Shown: positions 1 through 11,991 of the stretch, in pieces
Layout: each line of letters opens with the position of its first letter
Numbering within the stretch: the first letter of the stretch is position 1
Assembly (NCBI GenBank): GCA_963724465.1
Contig: CAVRUT010000005.1
Span: forward strand, 9,611 to 73,610
Direction: 5' to 3'
From: an uncultured Acidobacteriota bacterium
Lineage (GTDB): Bacteria > Acidobacteriota > Thermoanaerobaculia > UBA5066 > Gp7-AA6
DNA: 64,000 nt
Notes under the pieces: model-generated
The model's database searches: none
What the model was told of the DNA's origin: nothing
Seen by the model: the letters and a program-made list of their open reading frames with translations, nothing else
Program-made: the position numbers and the translations under genes

Positions 1-2549
1 GCCCGTGCAGCCTCGGCGCTGAACCACCCGAACATCCTTACGGTCCATGACATCGGTTCCGCCGATTCGATCGCATACATCGCGATGGAGTTCGTGGATG
101 GCGTGACGCTGGCCGAGCTGCTGGCGAAGGGGCCGCTCCCGATCAAGAAGCTCCTGAACGTCGCCGAGCAAATCGCCGACGGGCTCTCGAGCGCTCATGA
201 AGTGGGGGTGATCCACCGCGACCTGAAGCCGGGGAACATCATGATTTCCCGAGAAGGCTTCGTCAAGATCCTCGACTTTGGCCTTGCGAAGGTGCCGGCT
301 CCACCACAATCGCCCGCAGAGGACACGCACGCGAGGACCTTCAGCGGTCCGAAAACGCTGCCGGGGTATGTCGTCGGGACCACGGCATACATGTCGCCCG
401 AGCAGGCCCGAGGCGAGCCGATCGACTTTCGATCCGACCAGTTTGCCTTGGGGTCCGTTCTCTACGAGATGGCCACCGGGCGACAGGCGTTCCCGGGGCG
501 ATCCGACACGGACACGCTCCTCGCGATCCTCGAGAAGGAGCCGGAGCCGCTTTCGCAGGCTCGGCCCGGCGTGCCCCCTCCGCTCACCTGGATTGTCGAG
601 CGATGTCTCGCTAAGGACTCCGGGGACCGCTTCGTCTCGACGCGCGACCTCGCCCGCGATCTCGCCAGCGTCGGCGCTCACCTTTCCGAAATTGGCAGCT
701 CCGTCGAGAGGGCTGAGCAGCTGCGCGGGGGCCGCTGGAGGCGCCGCGCCTTTCGGGAGCGCGTAGCCTGGCTGGTGGCCGGGCTTTCGGTGCTTGCGGC
801 AGTTCTGCTGCTCCTCAGCCCTCGGCGTGACGCCGCTCCGGGGCGACCGATACGCCTTTCGCTGCTTCCCCCGAGAAGGCCGCGTTCAACTTCAGCAGCT
901 CCTCGCCGGGGCCCATAGCCGTCTCTCCCGACGGGAGTCGCGTGGTCTTCGGCGTCCGGGACGCCTCGGGAAGGGATCTGCTCTGGGTCCGGCCGCTCGA
1001 CGGCGTCACGGCTAAGCCTCTGGCTGGAACCGACGGCGCGACCTACCCCTTCTGGTCGCCCGATGGCCGCTCCATCGGGTTCTTCGCCGACGGAAAGCTG
1101 CGCCGCATCGAGGCTTCCGGCGGTCCTGCCGAGAGCCTGTGCGATGCGCCGAACGGCCGGGGTGGAACCTGGAACCAACAAGGCGTCATTCTGTTTGCGC
1201 CGGACAACGCTGGCCCGCTCTTCCGCGTTTCCGCTTCGGGGGGAAAGCCGGCTCCTGTCACACAGGTGGATGGCTCGCAACCGACCGCGACCCACCGCTG
1301 GCCGCAGTTTCTGCCGGACGGGCAGCACTTCCTCTTTCTCGCCTGGACCCCGAGCCGACCCTCGGACGTCGACGGAGTCTCCGTGGGATCACTCGACTCG
1401 AAGACAGCGAGGCCGCTTGTGCGGGACATTTCGAACGCTCTCTATGCTCCACCCGGATTCCTGCTCTATGTGCGGGAGGGCACCCTCCTCGCTACTGCCT
1501 TCGACGCAGTCTCTCTTCAGTTAAGGGGGCCGCCGGTTCCGCTCGTGGAGCAGGTCAGCTACCACCCCTACCGCCGAATGGGGATCTTCTCGGTTTCGAA
1601 CGCCGGCTTGCTGGCGTATCAGGCGGGCGCAATCCTCGAGCAGTCCGAGCTTTTCTGGCTCGATCGGACCGGGGCTCGCGTGGGGACAGTCGGGAGCCCG
1701 GGCAATTACTCCGGGGTCCGGCTCGACCGAGGCGGACGCCGCTTCGCGGTGGAGATCACGGAACCCCGAAGCGGAGACATCGACATCTGGCTCGGCGATC
1801 TCGCGCGCGGCGTTCTGACGCGCCTGACGTCAGGACAATTCGTCCACGACAGCCCGGTCTGGTCCCCGGACGGAGCCCAGATCGTATTCTCCTCCAACCG
1901 GAACGGGCACTTCGACCTCTTCCGAAAGAGCACGGACGGCGCGGGAGTCGAGGAGCCCCTCTTCACGTCGAGCAACGATAAATCGCCGACCGACTGGTCG
2001 GCCGACGGCCGCTTCATCGCCTTTGACGTCTTCGGCGAACGCGCCCACGAGCAGACCAGCTCCAAGCGCGGGGGAAAACACGAGGTCTGGATCTTTTCGG
2101 TCGCGGGCGGAGGCGCGACGCCGGTTCTCCAGACGGCGTTCAACGAATCGAGCGGTCGCTTCTCGCCCGATGGCCGCTGGCTCGCCTATTGCTCGGACAA
2201 CTCGGGAAGAAGCGAAGTGTACGTACGCTCCTTTCCCTCGCCCGGCGCGGAGTGGCGAGTTTCCGTCGATGGAGGCACGCAGCCGGTATGGCGTCCCGAC
2301 GGCCAAGAGCTCTTCTACGTCGGTGCCGATCGCAAGTTGATGGCGACCAAGACGAAGATCATGTCGGCTGTCACGCACGGCGCGATCGAGAGCCTGTTCG
2401 ACATACATTTGAGGTCTTCCGCCAGCGATATAGGGCTCTTCGACGTTGCGGCCGACGGCCGGCGGTTCCTGGTGAATACCCCGGTCGAGCGACAGACGTC
2501 GTCACCCGTCACCGTCGTGGTCAACTGGTCCGCGCCGCTACGCCGGTAG
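1..2549 (+). CDS. Ser/Thr protein kinase + TM + PD40/TolB-like beta-propeller (5'-truncated by window; frameshift near 870)
   Basis: Frame 1 reads ARAASALNHPNI...HRDLKPGN...DFG...YMSPEQ, then a hydrophobic segment. Adding one C to the C-run near 868-872 joins it to ORF 942..2549, which has WSPDG/FSPDG repeats. Confidence 0.9.
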
Positions 2550-3632
2550 TGCCTTTCGGCGCGTGTGGCCCTCGGGTCGGCCATGACGTGCGATCCCGGC
2601 GCCGCACACGTAGACCGGAAATTCCCGAACGCCATCCAGGCCGAGAAGTTTCTCGATACGGCTCTCCTTCATGGAAGCCGTCGTGAAGGCTCCGAGACGG
2701 CTCGCAGTCGCCAGAAGAGTGAAAGTCTGGGCCAGATGGCCGGCATCCAAGAAAAACAAGCGGTACGAATCGTCGGCGGAGTACTTCCAGAAGAGCCGGT
2801 CAGCGACCACGGTCATGATGCACAGAAAGGCCGCCTGTCGGATCCAGCTCTGTCCGGCGGCGAGGCGGACGGCCTCCTCGCGGAGGTCGCCCCGCCGAAG
2901 GCGCTCGAGACTATTCTCATGCACGTTGTAGTGATAGAGGCCCGCCGGCAGTCCCTCGACGCCCCAGGCCACGACATAACACTCGATCGGATGGCGGGCT
3001 CCCGCTGATGGGCTCGTCTTGGAGATTAGCCTCCCGAGCATTCCGGCATCCACCCACCCCGTCTGACCCCAGGTCCACCGAATGATGCTTGCGAAATCTC
3101 GAAACGGCACGAGACGGCGCGAGAAATCGCGCACGGTTCTGCGTCGCTCGAGCGCGCTTCTCAGGCTCGGACCGTGCTCGGTCGAGGCGTGATCGGGTAG
3201 AGGAAGGCGAGGCCGGCCGGGATAACTTTTGTACAGAGGAGGCTGCGGCTCCTCCGCCAGTCGGCGGCGGAAGTCCCGCGTCAGCTCCCCGGGGTCCGTC
3301 ACGTAGGAGACATCACGAGCGGCGAAATGAGAGTAAGCCGCCGGACAGGAGCCTCTCCACATCGCCGCCACGTCGCGGCGGGCGGTCCGGTCGGTGGCCG
3401 GAACGAGAAACCCCAGGTTTGCGAGCTTGCGAATCTCTCGCTCGACGGAGGCCGGCGTGTAGGTCATGAATGCCTTGGCGACCGAACGGCTCGACCTCGG
3501 CTTGCCGAATTCCGCGAGGAGCTCAACGACCAGCGGCGCCGCTGTGATCCGGCGGCGCCGGACGAACTCTTCGAGACAAAATTGGCTTCCTCGCCAATAG
3601 GCGACGACATTGGGGCTTCTGACGAGGCGCAT
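2538..3632 (-). CDS. SagB/ThcOx-family FMN-dependent peptide dehydrogenase with N-terminal wHTH/RRE-like region
   Basis: Motifs RRRTVRDF, KTSPSAGARHPIE, GLYHYN, FWKY (Lys-Tyr of azoline oxidases) and DAGHLAQ. The N-terminal ~80 aa end in VEREIRKLANLGFLV. Confidence 0.88.
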   Translation of the reverse strand: MRLVRSPNVVAYWRGSQFCLEEFVRRRRITAAPLVVELLAEFGKPRSSRSVAKAFMTYTPASVEREIRKLANLGFLVPATDRTARRDVAAMWRGSCPAAYSHFAARDVSYVTDPGELTRDFRRRLAEEPQPPLYKSYPGRPRLPLPDHASTEHGPSLRSALERRRTVRDFSRRLVPFRDFASIIRWTWGQTGWVDAGMLGRLISKTSPSAGARHPIECYVVAWGVEGLPAGLYHYNVHENSLERLRRGDLREEAVRLAAGQSWIRQAAFLCIMTVVADRLFWKYSADDSYRLFFLDAGHLAQTFTLLATASRLGAFTTASMKESRIEKLLGLDGVREFPVYVCGAGIARHGRPEGHTRRKALPA

Positions 3633-3672
3633 CCCCGTTCGCTTGTGCCCTAACGGCTTGTCACGAGGAGCG

Positions 3673-3846
3673 TTACTTACAGGTTTTCGACGTTTTCCAT
3701 TTGCTTGCCGTATTCACGAGCTTCTTGATCTCGAGGTTGAGCACTTTCATGAGTTCGTTCGTGGCCTTGCGCCTTTTTCTTTCGGCCTTGATCGCGGCCT
3801 TGAGCCTTTCGATTTGGGTCTTCTTCTTCGTCCTCGCTCCTGCCAC
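3673..3846 (-). CDS. 57-aa basic peptide, putative RiPP precursor (MAGARTKKKTQIERLKAAIKAERKRRKATNELMKVLNLEIKKLVNTASKWKTSKTCK)
   Basis: Translated by hand. Strong SD GAGGAGGT 4 nt before GTG, TAA stop 40 nt upstream of the SagB start, same strand. Below the ORF-track length cutoff. Confidence 0.75.
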   Translation of the reverse strand: MAGARTKKKTQIERLKAAIKAERKRRKATNELMKVLNLEIKKLVNTASKWKTSKTCK

Positions 3847-3940
3847 GCTCACCTCCTCGAGTCTCAGACTCGCTTTACCGGAAGACTATCCGATTGCCGA
3901 ATCCCGTGCGAGGAGGCGGGCGATGCCCGCCGAAGGAATG

Positions 3941-3986
3941 TGGTGCGCCCGGCGCGATTCGAACGCGCGACCTTTAGCTCCGGAGG
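3941..3986 (-). repeat. att site: 46-bp exact copy of tRNA-Arg(CCG) 3' half (distal)
   Basis: tggtgcgcccggcgcgattcgaacgcgcgacctttagctccggagg is identical to 11914..11959. Confidence 0.95.
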
Positions 3987-4114
3987 AGAGAAGGGGGAGG
4001 AGTCGACGACACCCGAGGACAGCTCAGAGTAGGTTTCTCAACGATTTAGCTCCGGGCGTCTGTCGAGGACTTTCCGGAGCGTTCGCCAAGACAGGAAGAA
4101 AACACGGAGAATCG
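3987..4114. repeat. Conserved 128-bp att arm (IHF-like box 4036..4048; tandem ACACGGAGAA-type repeats 4091..4114)
   Basis: Ungapped alignment to 9220..9347 with about 26 mismatches by hand count (~80% identity). Confidence 0.85.
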
Positions 4115-4495: not shown

Positions 4496-7270
4496 CTAGA
4501 GCGGGTTGTCGCGTCTCTCCCGCGGTTCGTCCGAATAGGACTTGACGAAATCGGCGACGGCGAGGATCTTGCCCTCCGGTCCGGCGACGGCCTCGATCGT
4601 GAACGTCCCGTAGGGCAGGTCCTCGGGCAATCGCCACGACGTCGAGAACACGCCGTCCTTGCCGACCGCCAAGCTTTGCTCCGGCAGCTTCATTTCTCGA
4701 ATGCGCAGAGTCACCTTCTCGCCGGCGGGAAAGCCGCGTCCCGAGACCTCGAGCGCGTTGTCCGGGCCCAGCCCGGCGACCCCGCTCGAGGGATAGGCCG
4801 TCGAAAGGAAAAGCTTGGCGAGGCCGGGATAGGCTTCGCCCCGCGGAGTCGGAGGCTCTTCCGGCTTGCGAGCTAGGACGCCGACGGTCCCCTCAGTGTC
4901 CGCGACCGGCGGGCGCCGATCCCAGTAAGGCGGATCGGTCTCGGAGCAACCCGAAGTTCTCTGGAGAAACCACAATCCATGGCCCCAGCTCGCGATGTGG
5001 ACCGCGCCGTTGGGATAGAAATGAAACCCCGTCACGTAGCTGATCCGCGCCGAGTTCTTGATCGTGCGCCAGGTCTTCCCGTCGTCCGTCGTGCAGATCA
5101 CGCCCGCGTCGCGAGTGCCCACGAGGATCCGCCCTTCCCGGTAGGGATCGAACGCGATCTTCGTGACCTGCATGTGGTAGTCGTCCATGTCGCGCATCTT
5201 CAGCCGGCCGCCCTGGAGCACCTGAGCCGTGAGCCGCTGGTCCTTCGCCCACGTCTGGCCGCCGTCGTGGCTCACCTTCACGTCCCCGGCCACGACGTCC
5301 GGCGCGATGAGGAAGCGCCAATCGTAGGGATCGGCGCCGAACACCGCATGCGAATCCCACTGCGCCGCGCGGCGCCCGAGACTGCCGCCGCCCGGAAGAC
5401 GGACGGCATCGCTGTCGTCGATCGTGTCCACGCGATCGGCGTAGAGATTGGATAGGGGGACGAGCCCGATGCCGCCGGTGCCGAGGTACACCGACACCCA
5501 GGCCATCACGCCCTCTCGCGGTAGGCCGCCCGTAACGACGTCGGGGTTCACGTGCGCGGCGACCCCTTCGGTGAGCACGCCGCCCTTCAGGTTCGTGCGT
5601 TGCACCGAGCCGGCCCAGCCGAAGTTGAGGTCGAAGCGCCGTCGCCAGGTGTTTCCGCCGTTCGTGGAAACGTAGACCCCGTTGCTCGGTCCGCCCCCGA
5701 TGCGGAGACGCACCCAACTGGTCGCCGTGCCTCCCGCCGACGGCTCGAGATAGAACGCCTGCTTCATCTGACCGGAATCGAGCGGCTGCCCGTTCTGGTC
5801 GATGTCCGGAACGAGCCGCTGGTTGAGAAAGTTCGCGTCGGCGAACTGTTCGGCCCAGTTGCCCCCGATCTCGACGTATCCCACCGTGATGGGCTCGCCC
5901 GGCCGGGCGTCGGGACGGACCTCCAGGTCGTAGCCTTCCGCCGCATCGCTGCGCGGCCACGTCTTCCCGCCGTCCGCGGAGGCCCAGAGGTTGTTGTCCT
6001 GCGTGCCGAAATAGAGCGACGTCGACAGGACCGCTCCGTCGGGCCTCACCATGTTGGTGCCGGCGAGATCCGTGATCTGAAGCGAGTTCATTCCGCTGCC
6101 GGGAACGGCGGCGCTCACCCAGTCGCCGATCCCTGGCGTCGTCGGCGGGCGCGGCTTGAAGAGACCGCCGTCGCTGCCGAGGAAGGTCGGCTTGAGACCC
6201 GCATTCACACCCAGATCGCTCATGTCGGCATGAATGCCGGCGGTGGCGATGTAGCTTGTCCAGTCCCCCTGGGTCAGCGCTCGGAACTCCTCCACCGTGG
6301 CCCGGGTCACCTGATACCCATCCCAGCCATGGCCGGTCCAGACCTTGATGGGCCACGGCCCAAACTCGGGCCCCGGCTCCTTCGTGACGCGTATGAAAGG
6401 ACCGCGCGATTTGCCCTGGGGTGTCGTGAGCAACGTCTTCGTGTCCGTGTCGAGCTCATAGAACCAGATCGTGCCGAAACGGTCACTCGGCGAGTTGTTG
6501 TGATACTCCCTGAGGATGAAGGCCCACGGCGCGTAAGGCGAGCGGTCCATCTTGTTCGCGCCGTACTGGAAGTTCCCGCTGAAGAAAGAGTCCGCGATCA
6601 CGTTGCGCCACGTGCCGCCCCGATCGTCGCTGCGATAAAGCGCGTTGGACGCGAGGGCGAGCACCTGACCCTTCGGGAACGCCAGGACCGCCTGCACCAT
6701 CGGCGGGAGCGTCGGCTCGAGCGCCTTGTGGGTCCAGGTGTCGCCGTTGTCGGTGCTGATCGCCACGCCGAAGTCCGTGCCGACGTACCAGAGACCGTTC
6801 TGGTCGGGCGACGGCGAAACCCCATACGCGCTCGTGCGCGTGATGGACGGCGTCGGCGGCACGACGCCGGTCGCCGGCCGGGTCCAGCTTCCGCCGCGGT
6901 CATGACTCACGTAGATGCCGCCGCCGTTAGCGACCTGGTTGTCTCGAAAGACCGTGGCGATCACGGTGGTTCCGTCGGCACCGAACTCGACGTCGCCGAC
7001 CATGACCGCGGGCAGCGAAAAGATGCGGAACCAGTTCTCTCCGCCGTTGATCGTCCCCCACAGGCCGCCGAACTCCATCGCCACGAGAGCGCGGTTTCGA
7101 TCGACGGGACTGACCGCGATCGACTGCACGCGGCCCGCGTTGAAGTCGTTTCCGGCGCTGTCGGCGAAGGCCGGCGGAATCGCGGGAGGGTCCTGAATCA
7201 GATGCACGGTCTCGCAGCCTGCGACGACCACGAACGACAGCAGACCGGCGACGGCGCGAAATCGAGACAT
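4496..7270 (-). CDS. Secreted lipoprotein with BNR/Asp-box repeats (sialidase/GH74/VPS10-like beta-propeller)
   Basis: SD GGAGGAGG, then MSRFRAVAGLLSFVVVAG-C lipobox. Many S-x-D-x-G-x-T/S-W repeats. Confidence 0.82.
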   Translation of the reverse strand: MSRFRAVAGLLSFVVVAGCETVHLIQDPPAIPPAFADSAGNDFNAGRVQSIAVSPVDRNRALVAMEFGGLWGTINGGENWFRIFSLPAVMVGDVEFGADGTTVIATVFRDNQVANGGGIYVSHDRGGSWTRPATGVVPPTPSITRTSAYGVSPSPDQNGLWYVGTDFGVAISTDNGDTWTHKALEPTLPPMVQAVLAFPKGQVLALASNALYRSDDRGGTWRNVIADSFFSGNFQYGANKMDRSPYAPWAFILREYHNNSPSDRFGTIWFYELDTDTKTLLTTPQGKSRGPFIRVTKEPGPEFGPWPIKVWTGHGWDGYQVTRATVEEFRALTQGDWTSYIATAGIHADMSDLGVNAGLKPTFLGSDGGLFKPRPPTTPGIGDWVSAAVPGSGMNSLQITDLAGTNMVRPDGAVLSTSLYFGTQDNNLWASADGGKTWPRSDAAEGYDLEVRPDARPGEPITVGYVEIGGNWAEQFADANFLNQRLVPDIDQNGQPLDSGQMKQAFYLEPSAGGTATSWVRLRIGGGPSNGVYVSTNGGNTWRRRFDLNFGWAGSVQRTNLKGGVLTEGVAAHVNPDVVTGGLPREGVMAWVSVYLGTGGIGLVPLSNLYADRVDTIDDSDAVRLPGGGSLGRRAAQWDSHAVFGADPYDWRFLIAPDVVAGDVKVSHDGGQTWAKDQRLTAQVLQGGRLKMRDMDDYHMQVTKIAFDPYREGRILVGTRDAGVICTTDDGKTWRTIKNSARISYVTGFHFYPNGAVHIASWGHGLWFLQRTSGCSETDPPYWDRRPPVADTEGTVGVLARKPEEPPTPRGEAYPGLAKLFLSTAYPSSGVAGLGPDNALEVSGRGFPAGEKVTLRIREMKLPEQSLAVGKDGVFSTSWRLPEDLPYGTFTIEAVAGPEGKILAVADFVKSYSDEPRERRDNPL

Positions 7271-7471
7271 TGGGCCCTCCTCCGGGAATAGAAGCGAATT
7301 TCGATGCCGCGCCCCGACAGTATGGCGCAGATCGCGTGTCGTTTCTCCTATTTCGCTCCTGGTGCTGCCCGTTCGCGGCGCGACCAATCCCCCGGAAGCT
7401 GCTCCGGATCGGCGAGTTGCGGCGGGTCAGCAACCAACCCGACTGGTAGAAGACCGCCACGGGCGTCCCGC

Positions 7472-8695
7472 TCAGCCAACTCGCCTCCCGACCCGCGTGG
7501 ACCTTCGCCGATCGCCACGACGCGGGGCAAGGCGGTCTCTCTTGATGAGGCCTGACTTCTCCAATTTCTTAAGGATCTCGCTGATGTCTTCAGCGGAAGT
7601 CCGTTCCATTGCCGACGCCAACTCATGGCCATAGAAACGTCGCTTACGTGCCATGTATCTCAGCGCTAATGCCCCTTCCAAAGGCAACTCGGTTCGTCTT
7701 GTCGTTTGGCCGACTTTCGTGATCAAGACAATCTTTTTCTCGCCTCGGCGTTCTACCACCCGGGTGTGATACTTGAGCGGAGTTTTTCGCTCGAAGGAAG
7801 CCGTTAGCGATGCGCCCCACTTTGCGAGCAAGCGGTCGGGACTCATCCGATCCGCGGCATTACAGACTTCGTGGACTAACTTCGTAAGCCGTTGTCCCTG
7901 CCAGTCCCGGCCGCCCGTCGACCCAAGGCCAAAGGCTAGTTCTCGAGCGTCATCAACTTTGTTTAGGTGAGCCTTCAATTCATCGACGAGAAGGTCGGCC
8001 CATGAAGGCGGATTGATGGTGTAGAGGAGCGACAAAGACGGCTCGTGATTGGCGGTGGAGTGCCAATAACCCGGATGCAGATACACGAGTGTGCCTTGTC
8101 GCGCTTCAAACCTTCTGGACCCCCTCGGCATCTTCGACGGGAAGGGTTGCCGCGAATAGGCCTTCATTTCGTCGTCCACGTCGGTGCCAACATTCCAGCC
8201 AGCGTGCGGATGTTTGAGATGCTTATTCTCTGCAATTTGCCATTGTTTTGCGCCGATCAACTGAATGTTGATCGTCACGTTCGGATCGAAATGAACTGCC
8301 GATCCGGCTCCCTTTGACGCGAATGCTTCAAAGAACACCTCTTCACCTCTCAGGCCCAAATCGAGTTCCAGACGGCGTGCGAGAGGTTTCAGGGCAGGGA
8401 CGTGTTCTTCGACATGGGACAAATAAAGCGTGTAGCCGCTCTCGAAGAAGTCAGACAGCTGTTCCGCCTCGGCCGTAATCACTGGGTTCTTAGTGTCCCG
8501 CGGTGCCCAGGCCTCCGCGGTGCCACGCCACACTTCCAAGATTGCCTCGATGCTGCGGAGTGCCGGAATCGTTGCGATCTCTTTGAACCGTTCTAGCGAA
8601 CCGTGGCGCACATACGGTCGTTTTTGCCAGTATCTGGACATGAACACATCTGTGGAGAGCGGGTGCAGCAGCTCAGCCAGCCCCAAAGTCTTCAT
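7472..8695 (-). CDS. JmjC/cupin-4 2-oxoglutarate/Fe(II) oxygenase (RoxA/YcfD-like), start uncertain (8695 or 8731)
   Basis: FMSRYWQKRP, HFD...QLIGAKQW and YLHPGYWH give the HxD...H triad. C-terminal wHTH-like end. Visibly lower GC than the flanks. Confidence 0.82.
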   Translation of the reverse strand: MKTLGLAELLHPLSTDVFMSRYWQKRPYVRHGSLERFKEIATIPALRSIEAILEVWRGTAEAWAPRDTKNPVITAEAEQLSDFFESGYTLYLSHVEEHVPALKPLARRLELDLGLRGEEVFFEAFASKGAGSAVHFDPNVTINIQLIGAKQWQIAENKHLKHPHAGWNVGTDVDDEMKAYSRQPFPSKMPRGSRRFEARQGTLVYLHPGYWHSTANHEPSLSLLYTINPPSWADLLVDELKAHLNKVDDARELAFGLGSTGGRDWQGQRLTKLVHEVCNAADRMSPDRLLAKWGASLTASFERKTPLKYHTRVVERRGEKKIVLITKVGQTTRRTELPLEGALALRYMARKRRFYGHELASAMERTSAEDISEILKKLEKSGLIKRDRLAPRRGDRRRSTRVGRRVG

Positions 8696-8788
8696 CCCAA
8701 ATCTCGGAGCGCTAGAGTCATCAGAACTCAACTAAGCTCGTGTTCCTCATGACACCGTGGAGACCTTCACGAGAGTATAGGCCGACCG

Positions 8789-9110: not shown

Positions 9111-9173
9111 AAGGTGGCCGGGGCGAAGCGCCCAGCCCTGCCTCAGGATGACGACTTAGGTCCTTGGAAAGAT

Positions 9174-9219
9174 TGGTGCGCCCGGCGCGATTCGAACGCG
9201 CGACCTTTAGCTCCGGAGG
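9174..9219 (-). repeat. att site: 46-bp exact copy of tRNA-Arg(CCG) 3' half (middle)
   Basis: Identical to 11914..11959 and 3941..3986. Confidence 0.95.
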
Positions 9220-9347
9220 GGAGAACGGTGAGGAGCCGACGACACCCGACGATAGCTCAGAGTAGAAAGATCAACGAGTTGGCTCCAGGCGCCTGTCATG
9301 GACTTTCCTCGACTTTCCCCAACACACGGAGAAAACACGGAGAATCG
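9220..9347. repeat. Conserved 128-bp att arm (IHF-like GATCAACGAGTTG 9269..9281; ACACGGAGAA x2 at 9324..9347)
   Basis: Homologous to 3987..4114 at identical spacing from the att core. Confidence 0.85.
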
Positions 9348-9406
9348 GGCGAGTCAACGCCTGTCGCTCTTGCCGGCTGGTTTTCGAGCGGAGTGGGTAA
9401 GGCATC

Positions 9407-11618
9407 TCAGGTCCCTTCCTTCGGCGCTGGGTAGAGCCTCTCGAATTCCGGGTCCCCGTGAAGGCTCGCAAGGTCCGGGTCGCGGCGCGTCCAGTCGGCG
9501 TCCTTGAAGCCGGCCTCCCAGGCCTTCCGCAGGGCGTCGAGCGCTTCGGCGCGCTTGCCGAGATTGGCGAAGGTGCAGGCGGCGTTGTAGAGCACGGTGG
9601 CCTCGTCCGGTCTCAGCACCATCGCCAGGTTCGCCTCGCGGACCGCAGTCCTCGGAGCGCCCCTCCTGGGCGTACACCCCGGCGAGGAGGATCCGCGCCC
9701 GCGCGTCCTCCGGAACCTCACGCAGGTGGCTCTCGAGCGCCTGAAGCTGGCGCCGCCGGACGTCGCGGTTGGCGTCTTCCCTTCCCAGTGCGCCGAGCGC
9801 GTTCCTGATCGGCACATAGACGTTGTAGTCGCTGCCCGCCGCCTCGATCGCTTCCTCCTTCAGCGCGGCCACCTCTTCGTACTTGCCGGCGGAGAAGAGC
9901 CCCCGCAGCAGGAGGTAATACGCCCCCTCGCAGTCCCGCTTGCGCGCGATGGCGGCCCGGGTCAGCCGCTCGGCGTCCTCGTACCGTCCGCCGGCGTAGA
10001 GGATCCAGCCCTGGGAGACGAGAACTTCGGGAATGTCGGGCGCGAGCGCGACCGCCCGCAGCGAAGCCGACTGGGCGCGCTCCATGTACGTCCCGCCGGG
10101 CCCGGACCAGTACTGGGCGTGCGCGCAGCCGTTCGCGATCGCCGCCCAGGCGAGGGCGAAGCTGGGATCGAGCGTGACCGCGTTCTCGAACATCTGAAGG
10201 GCGAACTCCATGTCCCGAGTCGTCCGCCGGCGGGCGTAGCTGCGGCCCCGCAGGTAGAGGTCGTAGGCCTGGAGGTTCTCCGTCGGCTTGGCCGCGAGCT
10301 CCGCCTGCTCCTGCGGAGTGAGCTTGATTCGCAGCGCCTCTGCGATCTTGTGCGCGATCTCGTCCTGCACCTCGAAGATGTCGGACATCTCGCGGTCGTA
10401 TCGCTCCGACCAGACCGGGAAGCCGGTGGCCGCGTCCACGAGCTGGGCATTGATCCGCAGCCGGTTGCCGGCGCGGCGCAGGCTCCCCTCGAGCGCGTAG
10501 TCGGCCCGCAGCTGGCGGCTGACGTCCGACGCGGTCGTCTTCTGGTCGCGGAAGGCGAGCACCGTGGTGCGCGGGAAGACGTTCAAGCCCTTGATCTTCG
10601 AGAGGTCGGTCAGGATGTCCTCGGTGATGCCGTCCCGCAGGTACTCGTCTTCCTTCACCCCCGAGAGGTTTTCGAAGTAGAGGACGGCGATCGAGCGCTC
10701 CGCGCGCCGGGCCGGCGCCTTCGAGTCGGAGGCTGCGGCCGGGCCGGACCGGCTCCCTTCGAGCTTCCTCCGCAGTCGAAGGAGGTCGGTCTTCAGCTCC
10801 GTCGCGGTCTGGTAGCGGAGGCTGCGGTCCTTCTCGAGCGCCTTCTCGAGGATCGGCGCGAGCGCCTCGGGCATCGCCGGGTTCACCTCCGCGAGCGGCC
10901 GGGGGTCGCGGTTCAGGATCGCGTCGAAGACGACCGCCTGGGTGTCGCCCTCGAAGGCCCGATCGCCGGTGGCCATCTGGTAGAGGATCGCGCCGAGCGA
11001 GAAGAGGTCGGTGCGGGCGTCGGTCGGCAGCCCGCGCGCCTGCTCCGGCGACATGTAGTGGACCGTGCCGAACACGGTCCCGGCCGCGGTCAGGTCCGCC
11101 CGCGGGGGCGCCGTGGGAGAGGTCGTCTCGGCGCTCGCCGCGCCGGGGCCCTCGAACTTCGCCAGGCCGAAATCGAGGATCTTCACCTGGCCGCGGGAGG
11201 TCACCATCATGTTCATCGGCTTCAAGTCGCGGTGGACGATGCCCTTCGCGTGCGCCGACTCGAGCGCGTCGGCCATCTGGATCCCGAGATCGAGGAGCTG
11301 CCCGATCTCCATCGGCTGTCCGGCGAGCCGCGTCGAGAGGGGTTCGCCGTCGACGAGCTCCATCACGATGAACGACTGGCCCTCGTGCTGTTCGATGGCG
11401 TGCACGGTGCAGATGCCGGGGTGGTTCAAGGCCGAAGCCGCGCGCGCCTCGCGCTCGAACCGCTCCAGCATGGGCGCGTCCTGCGCGAGCTCCGACGAGA
11501 GAAACTTCAACGCAACGTTTCGCCGGAGCCGTGTGTCCTCCGCCTCGTACACCACGCCCATGCCGCCGGCACCGAGCTCGCGAACGATCCGGTAGTGAGA
11601 AACCGTTGTTCCGAGCAA
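9407..11618 (-). CDS. Ser/Thr kinase + TolB-N-like domain + TPR repeats (frameshift near 9650)
   Basis: SHYRIVRELGAGGMG, HRDLKP, DFG, SIAVLYFENLS, AYDLYLRG. The C-terminus (YNAAC...DPDLASLHGDPEF) is in ORF 9407..9817. Confidence 0.9.
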
Positions 11619-11895: not shown

Positions 11896-11913
11896 GCCAA
11901 ATCCTTGAAAGTT

Positions 11914-11991
11914 TGGTGCGCCCGGCGCGATTCGAACGCGCGACCTTTAGCTCCGGAGGCTAACGCTCTATCCGGACTGAGCTACGGGCGC
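11914..11991 (-). tRNA. tRNA-Arg(CCG)
   Basis: Acceptor stem GCGCCCG/CGGGCGC, anticodon arm TTAGC-CTCCGGA-GCTAA, TTCGAAT T-loop, encoded CCA. Confidence 0.97.

Follow-up and report, generated by a model that had tools for sequence, protein, structure and literature searches.

A conserved Acidobacteriota module of a polybasic, mostly cysteine-containing peptide, a SagB/ThcOx-family dehydrogenase and a receptor kinase

A stretch of 64,000 nucleotides from an uncultured Acidobacteriota bacterium (contig CAVRUT010000005.1 of assembly GCA_963724465.1; the whole stretch is referred to as the window) carries on its minus strand a 57-aa peptide open reading frame (ORF) directly followed by a gene of the SagB/ThcOx family. 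Both genes belong to a module conserved in Acidobacteriota. It consists of a polybasic peptide that in most cases contains Cys, a SagB-type flavin mononucleotide (FMN) dehydrogenase fused to a predicted recognition element (RRE) for peptides that are synthesised ribosomally and modified post-translationally (RiPPs), and a single-pass receptor kinase whose ectodomain is either a propeller or of the TPR type. According to the textbook view, SagB-type dehydrogenases work together with YcaO cyclodehydratases. The gene trio described here is conserved and occurs in genomes free of YcaO, and its enzyme combines intact FMN-binding and Lys-Tyr motifs with the folds predicted for both of its domains. 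We lean, with some reserve, towards the reading that the enzyme modifies the adjacent peptide independently of YcaO. An original prediction, made from the sequence of the window alone, had pointed to the peptide and the enzyme as a candidate RiPP system.

The peptide ORF and its counterparts in related loci

The candidate substrate or precursor is encoded at 3673–3846 (minus strand, stop codon included) and was characterised by translation, alignment and locus comparison. The ORF may start with the GTG at 3846 or with that at 3852; its TAA stop codon occupies 3673–3675, and an in-frame stop is located at 3886–3888. Since the Shine-Dalgarno sequence GAGGAGG (3852–3858, minus strand) lies 5 nt ahead of the GTG at 3846 but overlaps the GTG at 3852, the reading of 57 aa is favoured. 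An identical 57-aa product is recorded from the window's own contig, which is 90,191 bp long, in a protein collection (P0121). Between the stop codon and the ATG of the SagB gene at 3632, a gap of 40 nt was found. Thus, translation and the P0121 record bore out the claim that an ORF absent from the ORF track, with a strong Shine-Dalgarno sequence, lies 40 nt upstream of the oxidase. The predicted very basic peptide with one Trp and one Cys was also recovered, the translation containing 14 Lys, 5 Arg, 4 Glu, 1 Trp and 1 Cys, with the tail NTASKWKTSKTCK. Because of its Lys codons, the GC content of the ORF drops to 50%, as compared to 68% for the window, which is the look of a selected Lys-rich coding sequence in a high-GC genome. 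Aligned to positions 1–4100 of the window, DNA contigs of the runs X1–X4 span 3577–3869 without gaps; they possibly derive from the same sample as the assembly and, thus, are not independent of it.

In database searches, the enzyme matched 1246 proteins at E ≤0.001, the best 120 of which were 303–405 aa long. A scan of species-representative genomes yielded 80 loci, nearly all of them in metagenome-assembled genomes (MAGs) of Acidobacteriota, namely of Thermoanaerobaculia, Vicinamibacterales and Holophagales. Eighteen loci with a partial enzyme match or an upstream region shorter than 350 nt were dropped, and 62 were kept. A scan of metagenome contigs with the enzyme added one partial locus (L083), which lacks the upstream region. 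An upstream peptide was scored when a same-strand ORF of 30–170 aa ended between -40 and +160 nt from the enzyme start and contained at least five Lys/Arg in its first 14 residues as well as a Cys in its last 25 residues. As controls, the test was repeated at 6363 further positions, taken from both strands of these loci. ORFs of this kind, basic at the N-terminus and with a Cys close to the C-terminus, were present upstream of the enzyme in 43 of the 62 loci, as compared to 430 of the 6363 control positions (6.8%). With a stricter test demanding at least four Lys, the numbers were 31 of 62 loci and 3 of 6363 controls. The check proposed with the original prediction, a search for conserved short ORFs upstream of homologous enzymes, was hence positive, and the comparison indicates that the small ORF is a genuine conserved partner of the enzyme.

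The trivial alternative is that the small ORF is spurious and that the enzyme is a stand-alone nitroreductase. It would fit with the finding that the peptides of seven clades have no credible Pfam or NCBIfam family, and that a search of a collection of 5.8 billion proteins with the window peptide returned only its own record. (A look-up of the window peptide and one Vicinamibacterales peptide in the ESM Atlas gave scores of ≤0.82 and was uninformative.) However, such ORFs are 10-fold to about 1000-fold commoner upstream of the enzyme than at the control positions. This excess, the conserved clade motifs, and the strong Shine-Dalgarno sequence together with the drop in GC content speak against a spurious ORF, which we regard as scarcely credible.

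The motifs around the Cys are clade-specific. The window peptide aligned with the upstream ORFs of four loci (L002, L003, L004 and L007), and this clade follows the pattern of a K-K-T start, an amphipathic helix and a terminal W-[KR]-x-x-K-x-C. Among its five sequences, Thr10, Leu36, Leu38 and Cys56 are invariant, while Trp is present in four. In one Thermoanaerobaculia clade, a Lys tail comes after MPAKKMKARAKRK...PPACDP.... The Vicinamibacterales peptides comprise about 100 aa, start with VAKKRK and end with ...C-x-P-[ST]-M.... Across clades, no other single residue is shared as widely as the Cys, which often stands in a C-x-P context. Conservation of Trp is confined to the nearest clade. 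The suggested cross-linking of Trp or Lys found no support.

The shortest peptides have about 31 aa, the longest about 150 aa. By eye, a twin-arginine translocation (Tat)-like signal SRRALLAGLGAGA... was noticed after the basic start of four ORFs (L005 1980–2294, L008 7645–7986, L009 238–699 and L012 7564–8004); the sole model match to these signals was weak. They suggest that a folded or modified product may be exported. A genome of the same genus (G291) encodes an enzyme with 57% identity next to a 113-aa peptide of the Tat type. Since the peptide is of another type despite the similarity of the enzymes, the peptide evolves much faster than the enzyme.

A SagB/ThcOx-family enzyme in genomes without YcaO

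The enzyme gene (2538–3632, minus strand) encodes 364 aa and was assigned to an RRE-fused SagB/ThcOx-family FMN dehydrogenase using Pfam, NCBIfam, a fold model and a profile alignment to PDB sequences. The stored gene call (P0002) starts at an internal Met and, with 309 aa, misses most of the conserved RRE-like domain. Since the homologues are conserved from residue 1, the start giving 364 aa is considered correct. The nitroreductase/SagB FMN domain comprises residues 162–346 (2595–3149, minus strand) and was detected by the Pfam Nitroreductase model PF00881 (69.6 bits, cut-off 23.5) and by NCBIfam. With 113.9 bits in TIGR03605 (SagB; cut-off 78.4), the protein is a member of the SagB family. 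It is the only SagB-family gene found in its own genome, a MAG of 64% completeness.

An AlphaFold2 model of the enzyme (27 homologues) reached a pLDDT of 83.9. Among PDB structures, ThcOx was its best match (369 columns, E 3.6e-19, TMq 0.64), with BmdC and McbC next. In a profile search of PDB sequences, the family motifs RRtvRef, PsaGarhPiE.Y and RvfwkY aligned to motifs of ThcOx. The W-K-Y motif noted in the original prediction is indeed kept; it corresponds to residues W282-K283-Y284 (2781–2789, minus strand), which align with RLFWKY of ThcOx. Conservation was assessed in 179 family members: R164 is present in 179, W282 in 176, Y284 in 177 and K283 in 156 (with Arg in 20). Thus, the motifs for FMN binding and the pair of Lys and Tyr, which align with those of a solved azoline oxidase, are near-invariant in the family. 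In azoline oxidases, the Lys-Tyr pair is catalytic. In addition, the family possesses two specific cysteines, C218 in 170 and C271 in 156 of the 179 members, whereas ThcOx has Ile at both positions.

The domain at the N-terminus, which extends to about residue 95 (3348–3632, minus strand), is predicted to adopt an RRE/winged helix-turn-helix (wHTH) fold, based on a structure model and Foldseek. Modelled alone from 34 sequences, it reached a pLDDT of 89.4 and consists of four strands followed by three helices and one further strand; in the predicted model, it thus resembles solved RREs, in which three to four strands precede three helices. The top PDB matches listed by Foldseek were all RRE-bearing RiPP proteins, namely TigE (TM-score 0.72), TbiB1 with its leader, LynD/TruD, MccB, ThcOx, MibB, CteB, TbtB and PbtF. 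Their E-values were modest, between 1e-3 and 1e-1.

YcaO was searched for with PF02624, and the control genomes behaved as expected. No match was found in the window, as the original prediction had stated, nor elsewhere in the MAG, which is 64% complete. Of five other module-bearing genomes, four contained no YcaO, while the lone match (G004) was located about 386 kb from the SagB gene. None was found in five family-bearing genomes of 98–100% completeness. Two of the genomes (G003 and G362) show identical coordinates and are apparently one and the same assembly, so that nine distinct genomes were covered, eight of them without YcaO. Since YcaO is missing from eight of nine other family-bearing genomes, a cyclodehydratase acting in trans, which had been offered as one explanation of the stand-alone enzyme, is very unlikely. 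The other explanation offered, a chemistry independent of YcaO, is strongly favoured by the same genomes.

This bears on the possibility that the enzyme is a canonical azoline oxidase of thiazole/oxazole-modified microcins (TOMMs) or linear azol(in)e-containing peptides (LAPs), served by a YcaO cyclodehydratase encoded elsewhere. Its best relatives in structure and sequence are the azoline oxidases ThcOx, McbC and BmdC, and the MAG of the window is incomplete, which would leave room for a missed YcaO. However, no YcaO was found in the cluster or in the MAG, eight of nine other family-bearing genomes repeat this absence, five of them at 98–100% completeness, the single YcaO that was found is far from the module, and the window peptide and most of its relatives contain one Cys instead of a core rich in Cys, Ser and Thr. 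A canonical azoline-oxidase role is very unlikely, and the explanation by a cyclodehydratase in trans is already largely refuted.

The cyanobactin azoline oxidase ThcOx/CyaGox (PDB 5LQ4, 8PZ5) is the closest solved relative and the best whole-length fold match. It shares with the family the RRSxR, PSxGxxxxxE.Y and RLFWKY motifs and the order of an N-terminal RRE-like domain followed by the nitroreductase domain. Differences concern the number of N-terminal domains, presumably two in ThcOx as compared to one in the module's family, as well as the two family-specific cysteines and the linkage to a kinase. Moreover, ThcOx oxidises thiazolines made by YcaO, while the module's family lacks YcaO in nearly all genomes checked, including the MAG of the window. 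McbC, BcerB/SagB and the nonribosomal peptide synthetase (NRPS) oxidase BmdC likewise have the same FMN fold and Lys-Tyr pair as the module enzyme, but act in YcaO complexes or on NRPS-made thiazolines and show no kinase linkage.

Among the named models, TIGR04511 (SagB_rel_DH_2) scored highest. With 181 bits, the enzyme remained below the cut-off of 240 bits and membership was rejected; the match covered model positions 136–369 only and did not include the N-terminal domain, which, therefore, differs. The cut-off was reached in none of 401 Acidobacteriota genomes, a tally that includes the unpublished genome G029, on which no result rests. We take TIGR04509, TIGR04510 and TIGR04511 to form a cassette of a small peptide, a large signalling-type protein and a SagB-related dehydrogenase, whose three-part make-up would parallel that of the module. 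The two partner families were not matched either: TIGR04509 (mod_pep_NH_fam) gave no match with the module peptides, and TIGR04510 (mod_pep_cyc) gave only weak, repeat-type matches well under its cut-off of 400 bits, the partner in the module being a Hanks-type kinase instead.

The closest functional precedent is provided by TfxB and TfxC of trifolitoxin and the tiarins. In the available part of a preprint (bioRxiv 10.64898/2025.12.02.691738), these RRE-bearing SagB-type FMN dehydrogenases are proposed to catalyse a non-azoline chemistry leading to a Gln-derived fluorophore, with YcaO being optional. A tiarin-type pathway, in which a TfxB/TfxC-like pair generates a Gln-derived chromophore, would share with the module the architecture of an RRE joined to a SagB-type FMN domain within one enzyme, a precursor gene directly upstream with a strong Shine-Dalgarno sequence, and a merely accessory YcaO, as far as the preprint text at hand describes tiarins. 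According to the same text, however, tiarin clusters are defined by the TfxB-TfxC pair and a conserved Gln, whereas each module contains a single enzyme, with no adjacent TfxB and TfxC homologues, together with a conserved Cys, a polybasic peptide and a receptor kinase. The basic peptides also contrast with the aliphatic, acidic leader motif given there for tiarins, a kinase linkage is not described for tiarins in that portion of the preprint, and no aminoacyl-tRNA synthetase or immunity genes were seen with the module. A tiarin-type pathway is, hence, highly improbable.

The receptor kinase and the genomic surroundings

Clustering of the neighbouring ORFs revealed one family that adjoins the enzyme almost everywhere, a Hanks-type Ser/Thr kinase of about 850–910 aa. 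These proteins contain a Pkinase domain (E about 1e-44) combined with a propeller of the PD40/TolB type in Thermoanaerobaculia or TPR repeats in Vicinamibacterales. A single hydrophobic or transmembrane segment follows the kinase domain in five of six kinases checked. Thus, they show the organisation of Hanks-type receptor kinases, with Pkinase, one transmembrane segment and an extracytoplasmic sensor domain. In the window, the kinase (1–2549, plus strand; Pfam) begins about 180 nt before the first position, is convergent to the peptide-enzyme pair and has a PD40 match at 1.2e-24.

Adjacency was determined in the 80 loci by tblastn with kinase domains; 16 loci with a flank under 3.3 kb were not judgeable. 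A kinase adjoined the pair in 59 of the 64 judgeable loci. In 46 loci, it was directly upstream on the same strand (order kinase, peptide, enzyme), in 12 it was convergent and directly downstream as in the window, and in 1 it was downstream on the same strand. The 5 loci without kinase are the distant loci from Nannocystaceae, Sphaerisporangium and Acidobacteriaceae and one fragment. With 33–78 Pkinase matches per genome of 3–5 Mb, the kinase density predicts an adjacency of only a few percent by chance. The window's own MAG (3.0 Mb, 64% complete) contains 74 such matches, a same-genus genome of 4.2 Mb 78. While the convergent kinase had been correctly recognised as a flank, the notion of a closed two-gene unit did not hold, the kinase being itself a conserved component of the module.

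Pairwise identities of SagB and of the adjacent kinase correlated with a Spearman coefficient of 0.79 over 1078 locus pairs, a value confounded by shared ancestry. One genome contains three modules (L002, L023 and L033); for two of these, the best SagB match and the best kinase match were located in the same foreign locus. In Vicinamibacterales loci, a gene for an extracytoplasmic function (ECF) sigma factor directly precedes the kinase gene, and small conserved ORFs follow the enzyme. The order of ECF sigma factor, kinase with TPR ectodomain, basic peptide of about 100 aa and SagB was seen in L051–L055, L057, L060–L062, L064 and L067. After SagB, these loci carry one or both of two conserved ORFs that match no Pfam family: a coiled-coil ORF with about 100 aa and another with about 160 aa.

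The linkage to signalling genes raises the alternative of an intracellular regulatory module. The small basic protein would then be a kinase substrate or a regulator binding nucleic acids or membranes, and the redox or modification state of its Cys would be set by the flavoenzyme, with the receptor kinase, joined in one lineage by the ECF sigma factor, acting upstream. This alternative gains from the near-universal adjacency of the kinase, the ECF sigma gene directly before it in Vicinamibacterales-type loci, the occurrence of one to three module copies per genome as for signalling paralogues, the lack of a conserved exporter or protease, the Thr after the basic stretch that is invariant in the near clade, and the peptide length of up to about 150 aa. 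On the other hand, the RRE-like fold as well as the active-site motifs of SagB characterise enzymes that tailor RiPPs, the twin-arginine signals of some peptides point outside the cytoplasm, and the peptides diversify fast next to a conserved enzyme, as RiPP cores do. We consider an intracellular regulatory role rather unlikely, though worth keeping in mind.

A named precedent for a protein with a Ser/Thr kinase domain in a SagB/TOMM-type peptide system is the TOMM system kinase/cyclase fusion TIGR03903. The kinase of the module scored 155 bits with this model, far under the cut-off of 705.75 and in the kinase domain only. The fusion protein carries a cyclase domain, whereas the module kinase has none and is a transmembrane receptor with a propeller or TPR ectodomain. 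A description of a module of kinase, peptide and SagB was not found in the literature; the TfxC network in the accessible text of the tiarin preprint includes stand-alone SagB proteins and might include this family.

Several further features of the surroundings were observed. The module is duplicated in tandem in L058 (3300–3800 and 7624–7950), with a peptide in both copies, and in L035 (8001–9128 and 12217–13642), with a peptide in the second copy only. Genes for a radical S-adenosylmethionine (radical-SAM)/SPASM protein of about 470 aa and a pyridoxal phosphate-dependent (PALP) enzyme are located beside SagB in roughly a dozen Thermoanaerobaculia-type loci (L004, L010, L030, L035, L037, L040, L043, L044, L045, L069 and L073), and are absent near the window copy. 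These neighbours could represent a further maturase or mere synteny. The kinase-free loci L077 and L079 (Sphaerisporangium and an Acidobacteriaceae MAG) contain tandem pairs of SagB-type genes, recalling the arrangement of TfxB and TfxC.

On the side opposite to the kinase, the peptide gene of the window is bounded by an att-like repeat that duplicates the 3' half of tRNA-Arg(CCG) (about 3934–3986, minus strand; repeat comparison). It is 89–98% identical to copies at 9167–9219 and 11907–11959, with the full tRNA-Arg(CCG) at 11914–11991, and a repeat of 174 nt (3941–4114 and 9174–9347) shows 85% identity. Between the copies lie genes for a BNR/sortilin-like protein (4496–7387), a JmjC-like protein (7472–8731) and a second Ser/Thr kinase (9354–11618). 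No integrase was found among the ORFs of at least 100 aa between the tRNA-half copies, and a canonical integrative island was dropped as an explanation. Since no integrase was seen, the segments are described as repeats only. Thus, the att site that had been proposed is real as a repeat of a tRNA half, while an integrative element is not supported.

Proposed function and implications

The preferred reading, a YcaO-independent modification of the peptide by the neighbouring enzyme, can be outlined as follows. Judging by the gap of 40 nt and the conserved gene order, peptide and enzyme genes are probably co-transcribed. The RRE-like domain, by its fold, would dock the peptide, and the FMN domain would then carry out an oxidation or dehydrogenation at or beside the conserved Cys without YcaO. 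Candidate chemistries are the conversion of the thiol to a thioaldehyde or a formylglycine-type oxidation, an alpha,beta-dehydrogenation, and a thiol-disulfide chemistry involving C218 and C271 of the enzyme. From its position next to the pair, the kinase may control the module or sense an exported product. Of the traits of a RiPP system, the genetic half, a candidate precursor gene beside a gene for a putative modifying enzyme, is present.

Several findings weigh against this reading. Nineteen of the 62 loci lack an upstream ORF fulfilling the strict definition. Most of these still possess a small ORF with a Cys, though of a different type, e.g., the EWCDGF peptides of L046–L049 or those of L027, L028 and L036, with GP(D/G)CD near the start and a Lys tract at the C-terminus. 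In L013, the upstream ORF has no Cys, and in L035 and L037, the space between kinase and SagB is too small for a peptide ORF. The peptides are unusually basic and in part long, so that some of them are proteins rather than classical precursors. As the relatives share ancestry, there are fewer independent observations than the locus counts suggest. Among the neighbouring ORF families of the loci, no conserved gene for a protease or exporter was seen. With respect to the N-terminal domain, profile searches of the window protein gave no PqqD/RRE or wHTH sequence match, and matches among the 34 members were weak (MarR in 4; PqqD, PF05402, in 1 at E 0.15). Since the sequence-level matches are weak, the RRE assignment rests on the predicted fold: the extra wHTH/RRE-like N-terminus of the original prediction stands as a predicted fold. 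In addition, RREs fused to dehydrogenases may be vestigial according to the part of the RRE-Finder preprint at hand. Finally, the kinase of the window is split into two frames (1–918 and 942–2549), with a shift near a run of five C at 868–872. The orthologue in L003 is a single ORF of 909 aa, and one short-read contig of depth 2 contains an extra G behind position 872. Due to this extra G, the split may be an assembly error instead of the mark of a pseudogene. A prediction of the complex of peptide and enzyme scored 0.20, with a mark of 0.32, and was used as evidence neither way.

A more far-reaching proposal joins the three components to a peptide-signal circuit. The Cys would be rendered reactive or recognisable without YcaO, and the product would be exported, via Tat in the lineages with twin-arginine signals, and sensed by the ectodomain of the adjacent kinase, which in Vicinamibacterales would signal to the ECF sigma factor. 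Taken as a whole, this circuit is improbable on present evidence and is put forward as speculation.

The module is a real conserved feature and apparently undescribed. Its distinctive traits are the probable independence from YcaO, the polybasic candidate substrates with a single Cys and the near-obligatory receptor kinase. That a widespread family has kept its catalytic motifs and a predicted leader-docking domain in genomes free of YcaO suggests an undescribed peptide chemistry at cysteine. Furthermore, the near-obligatory pairing with a kinase, in one lineage also with an ECF sigma factor, ties the modification of ribosomal peptides to eukaryote-like kinase signalling. Since the system is small, with about 1.3 kb for its two genes and the kinase in addition, a mass change of the peptide is directly testable by heterologous co-expression. 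Acidobacteriota are abundant in soil and hard to culture, and they are extraordinarily rich in kinases, with 33–78 kinase-domain matches per genome. If the circuit were true, their module would pair a RiPP autoinducer with a receptor kinase resembling those of eukaryotes, and no such signalling architecture has been described in bacteria.

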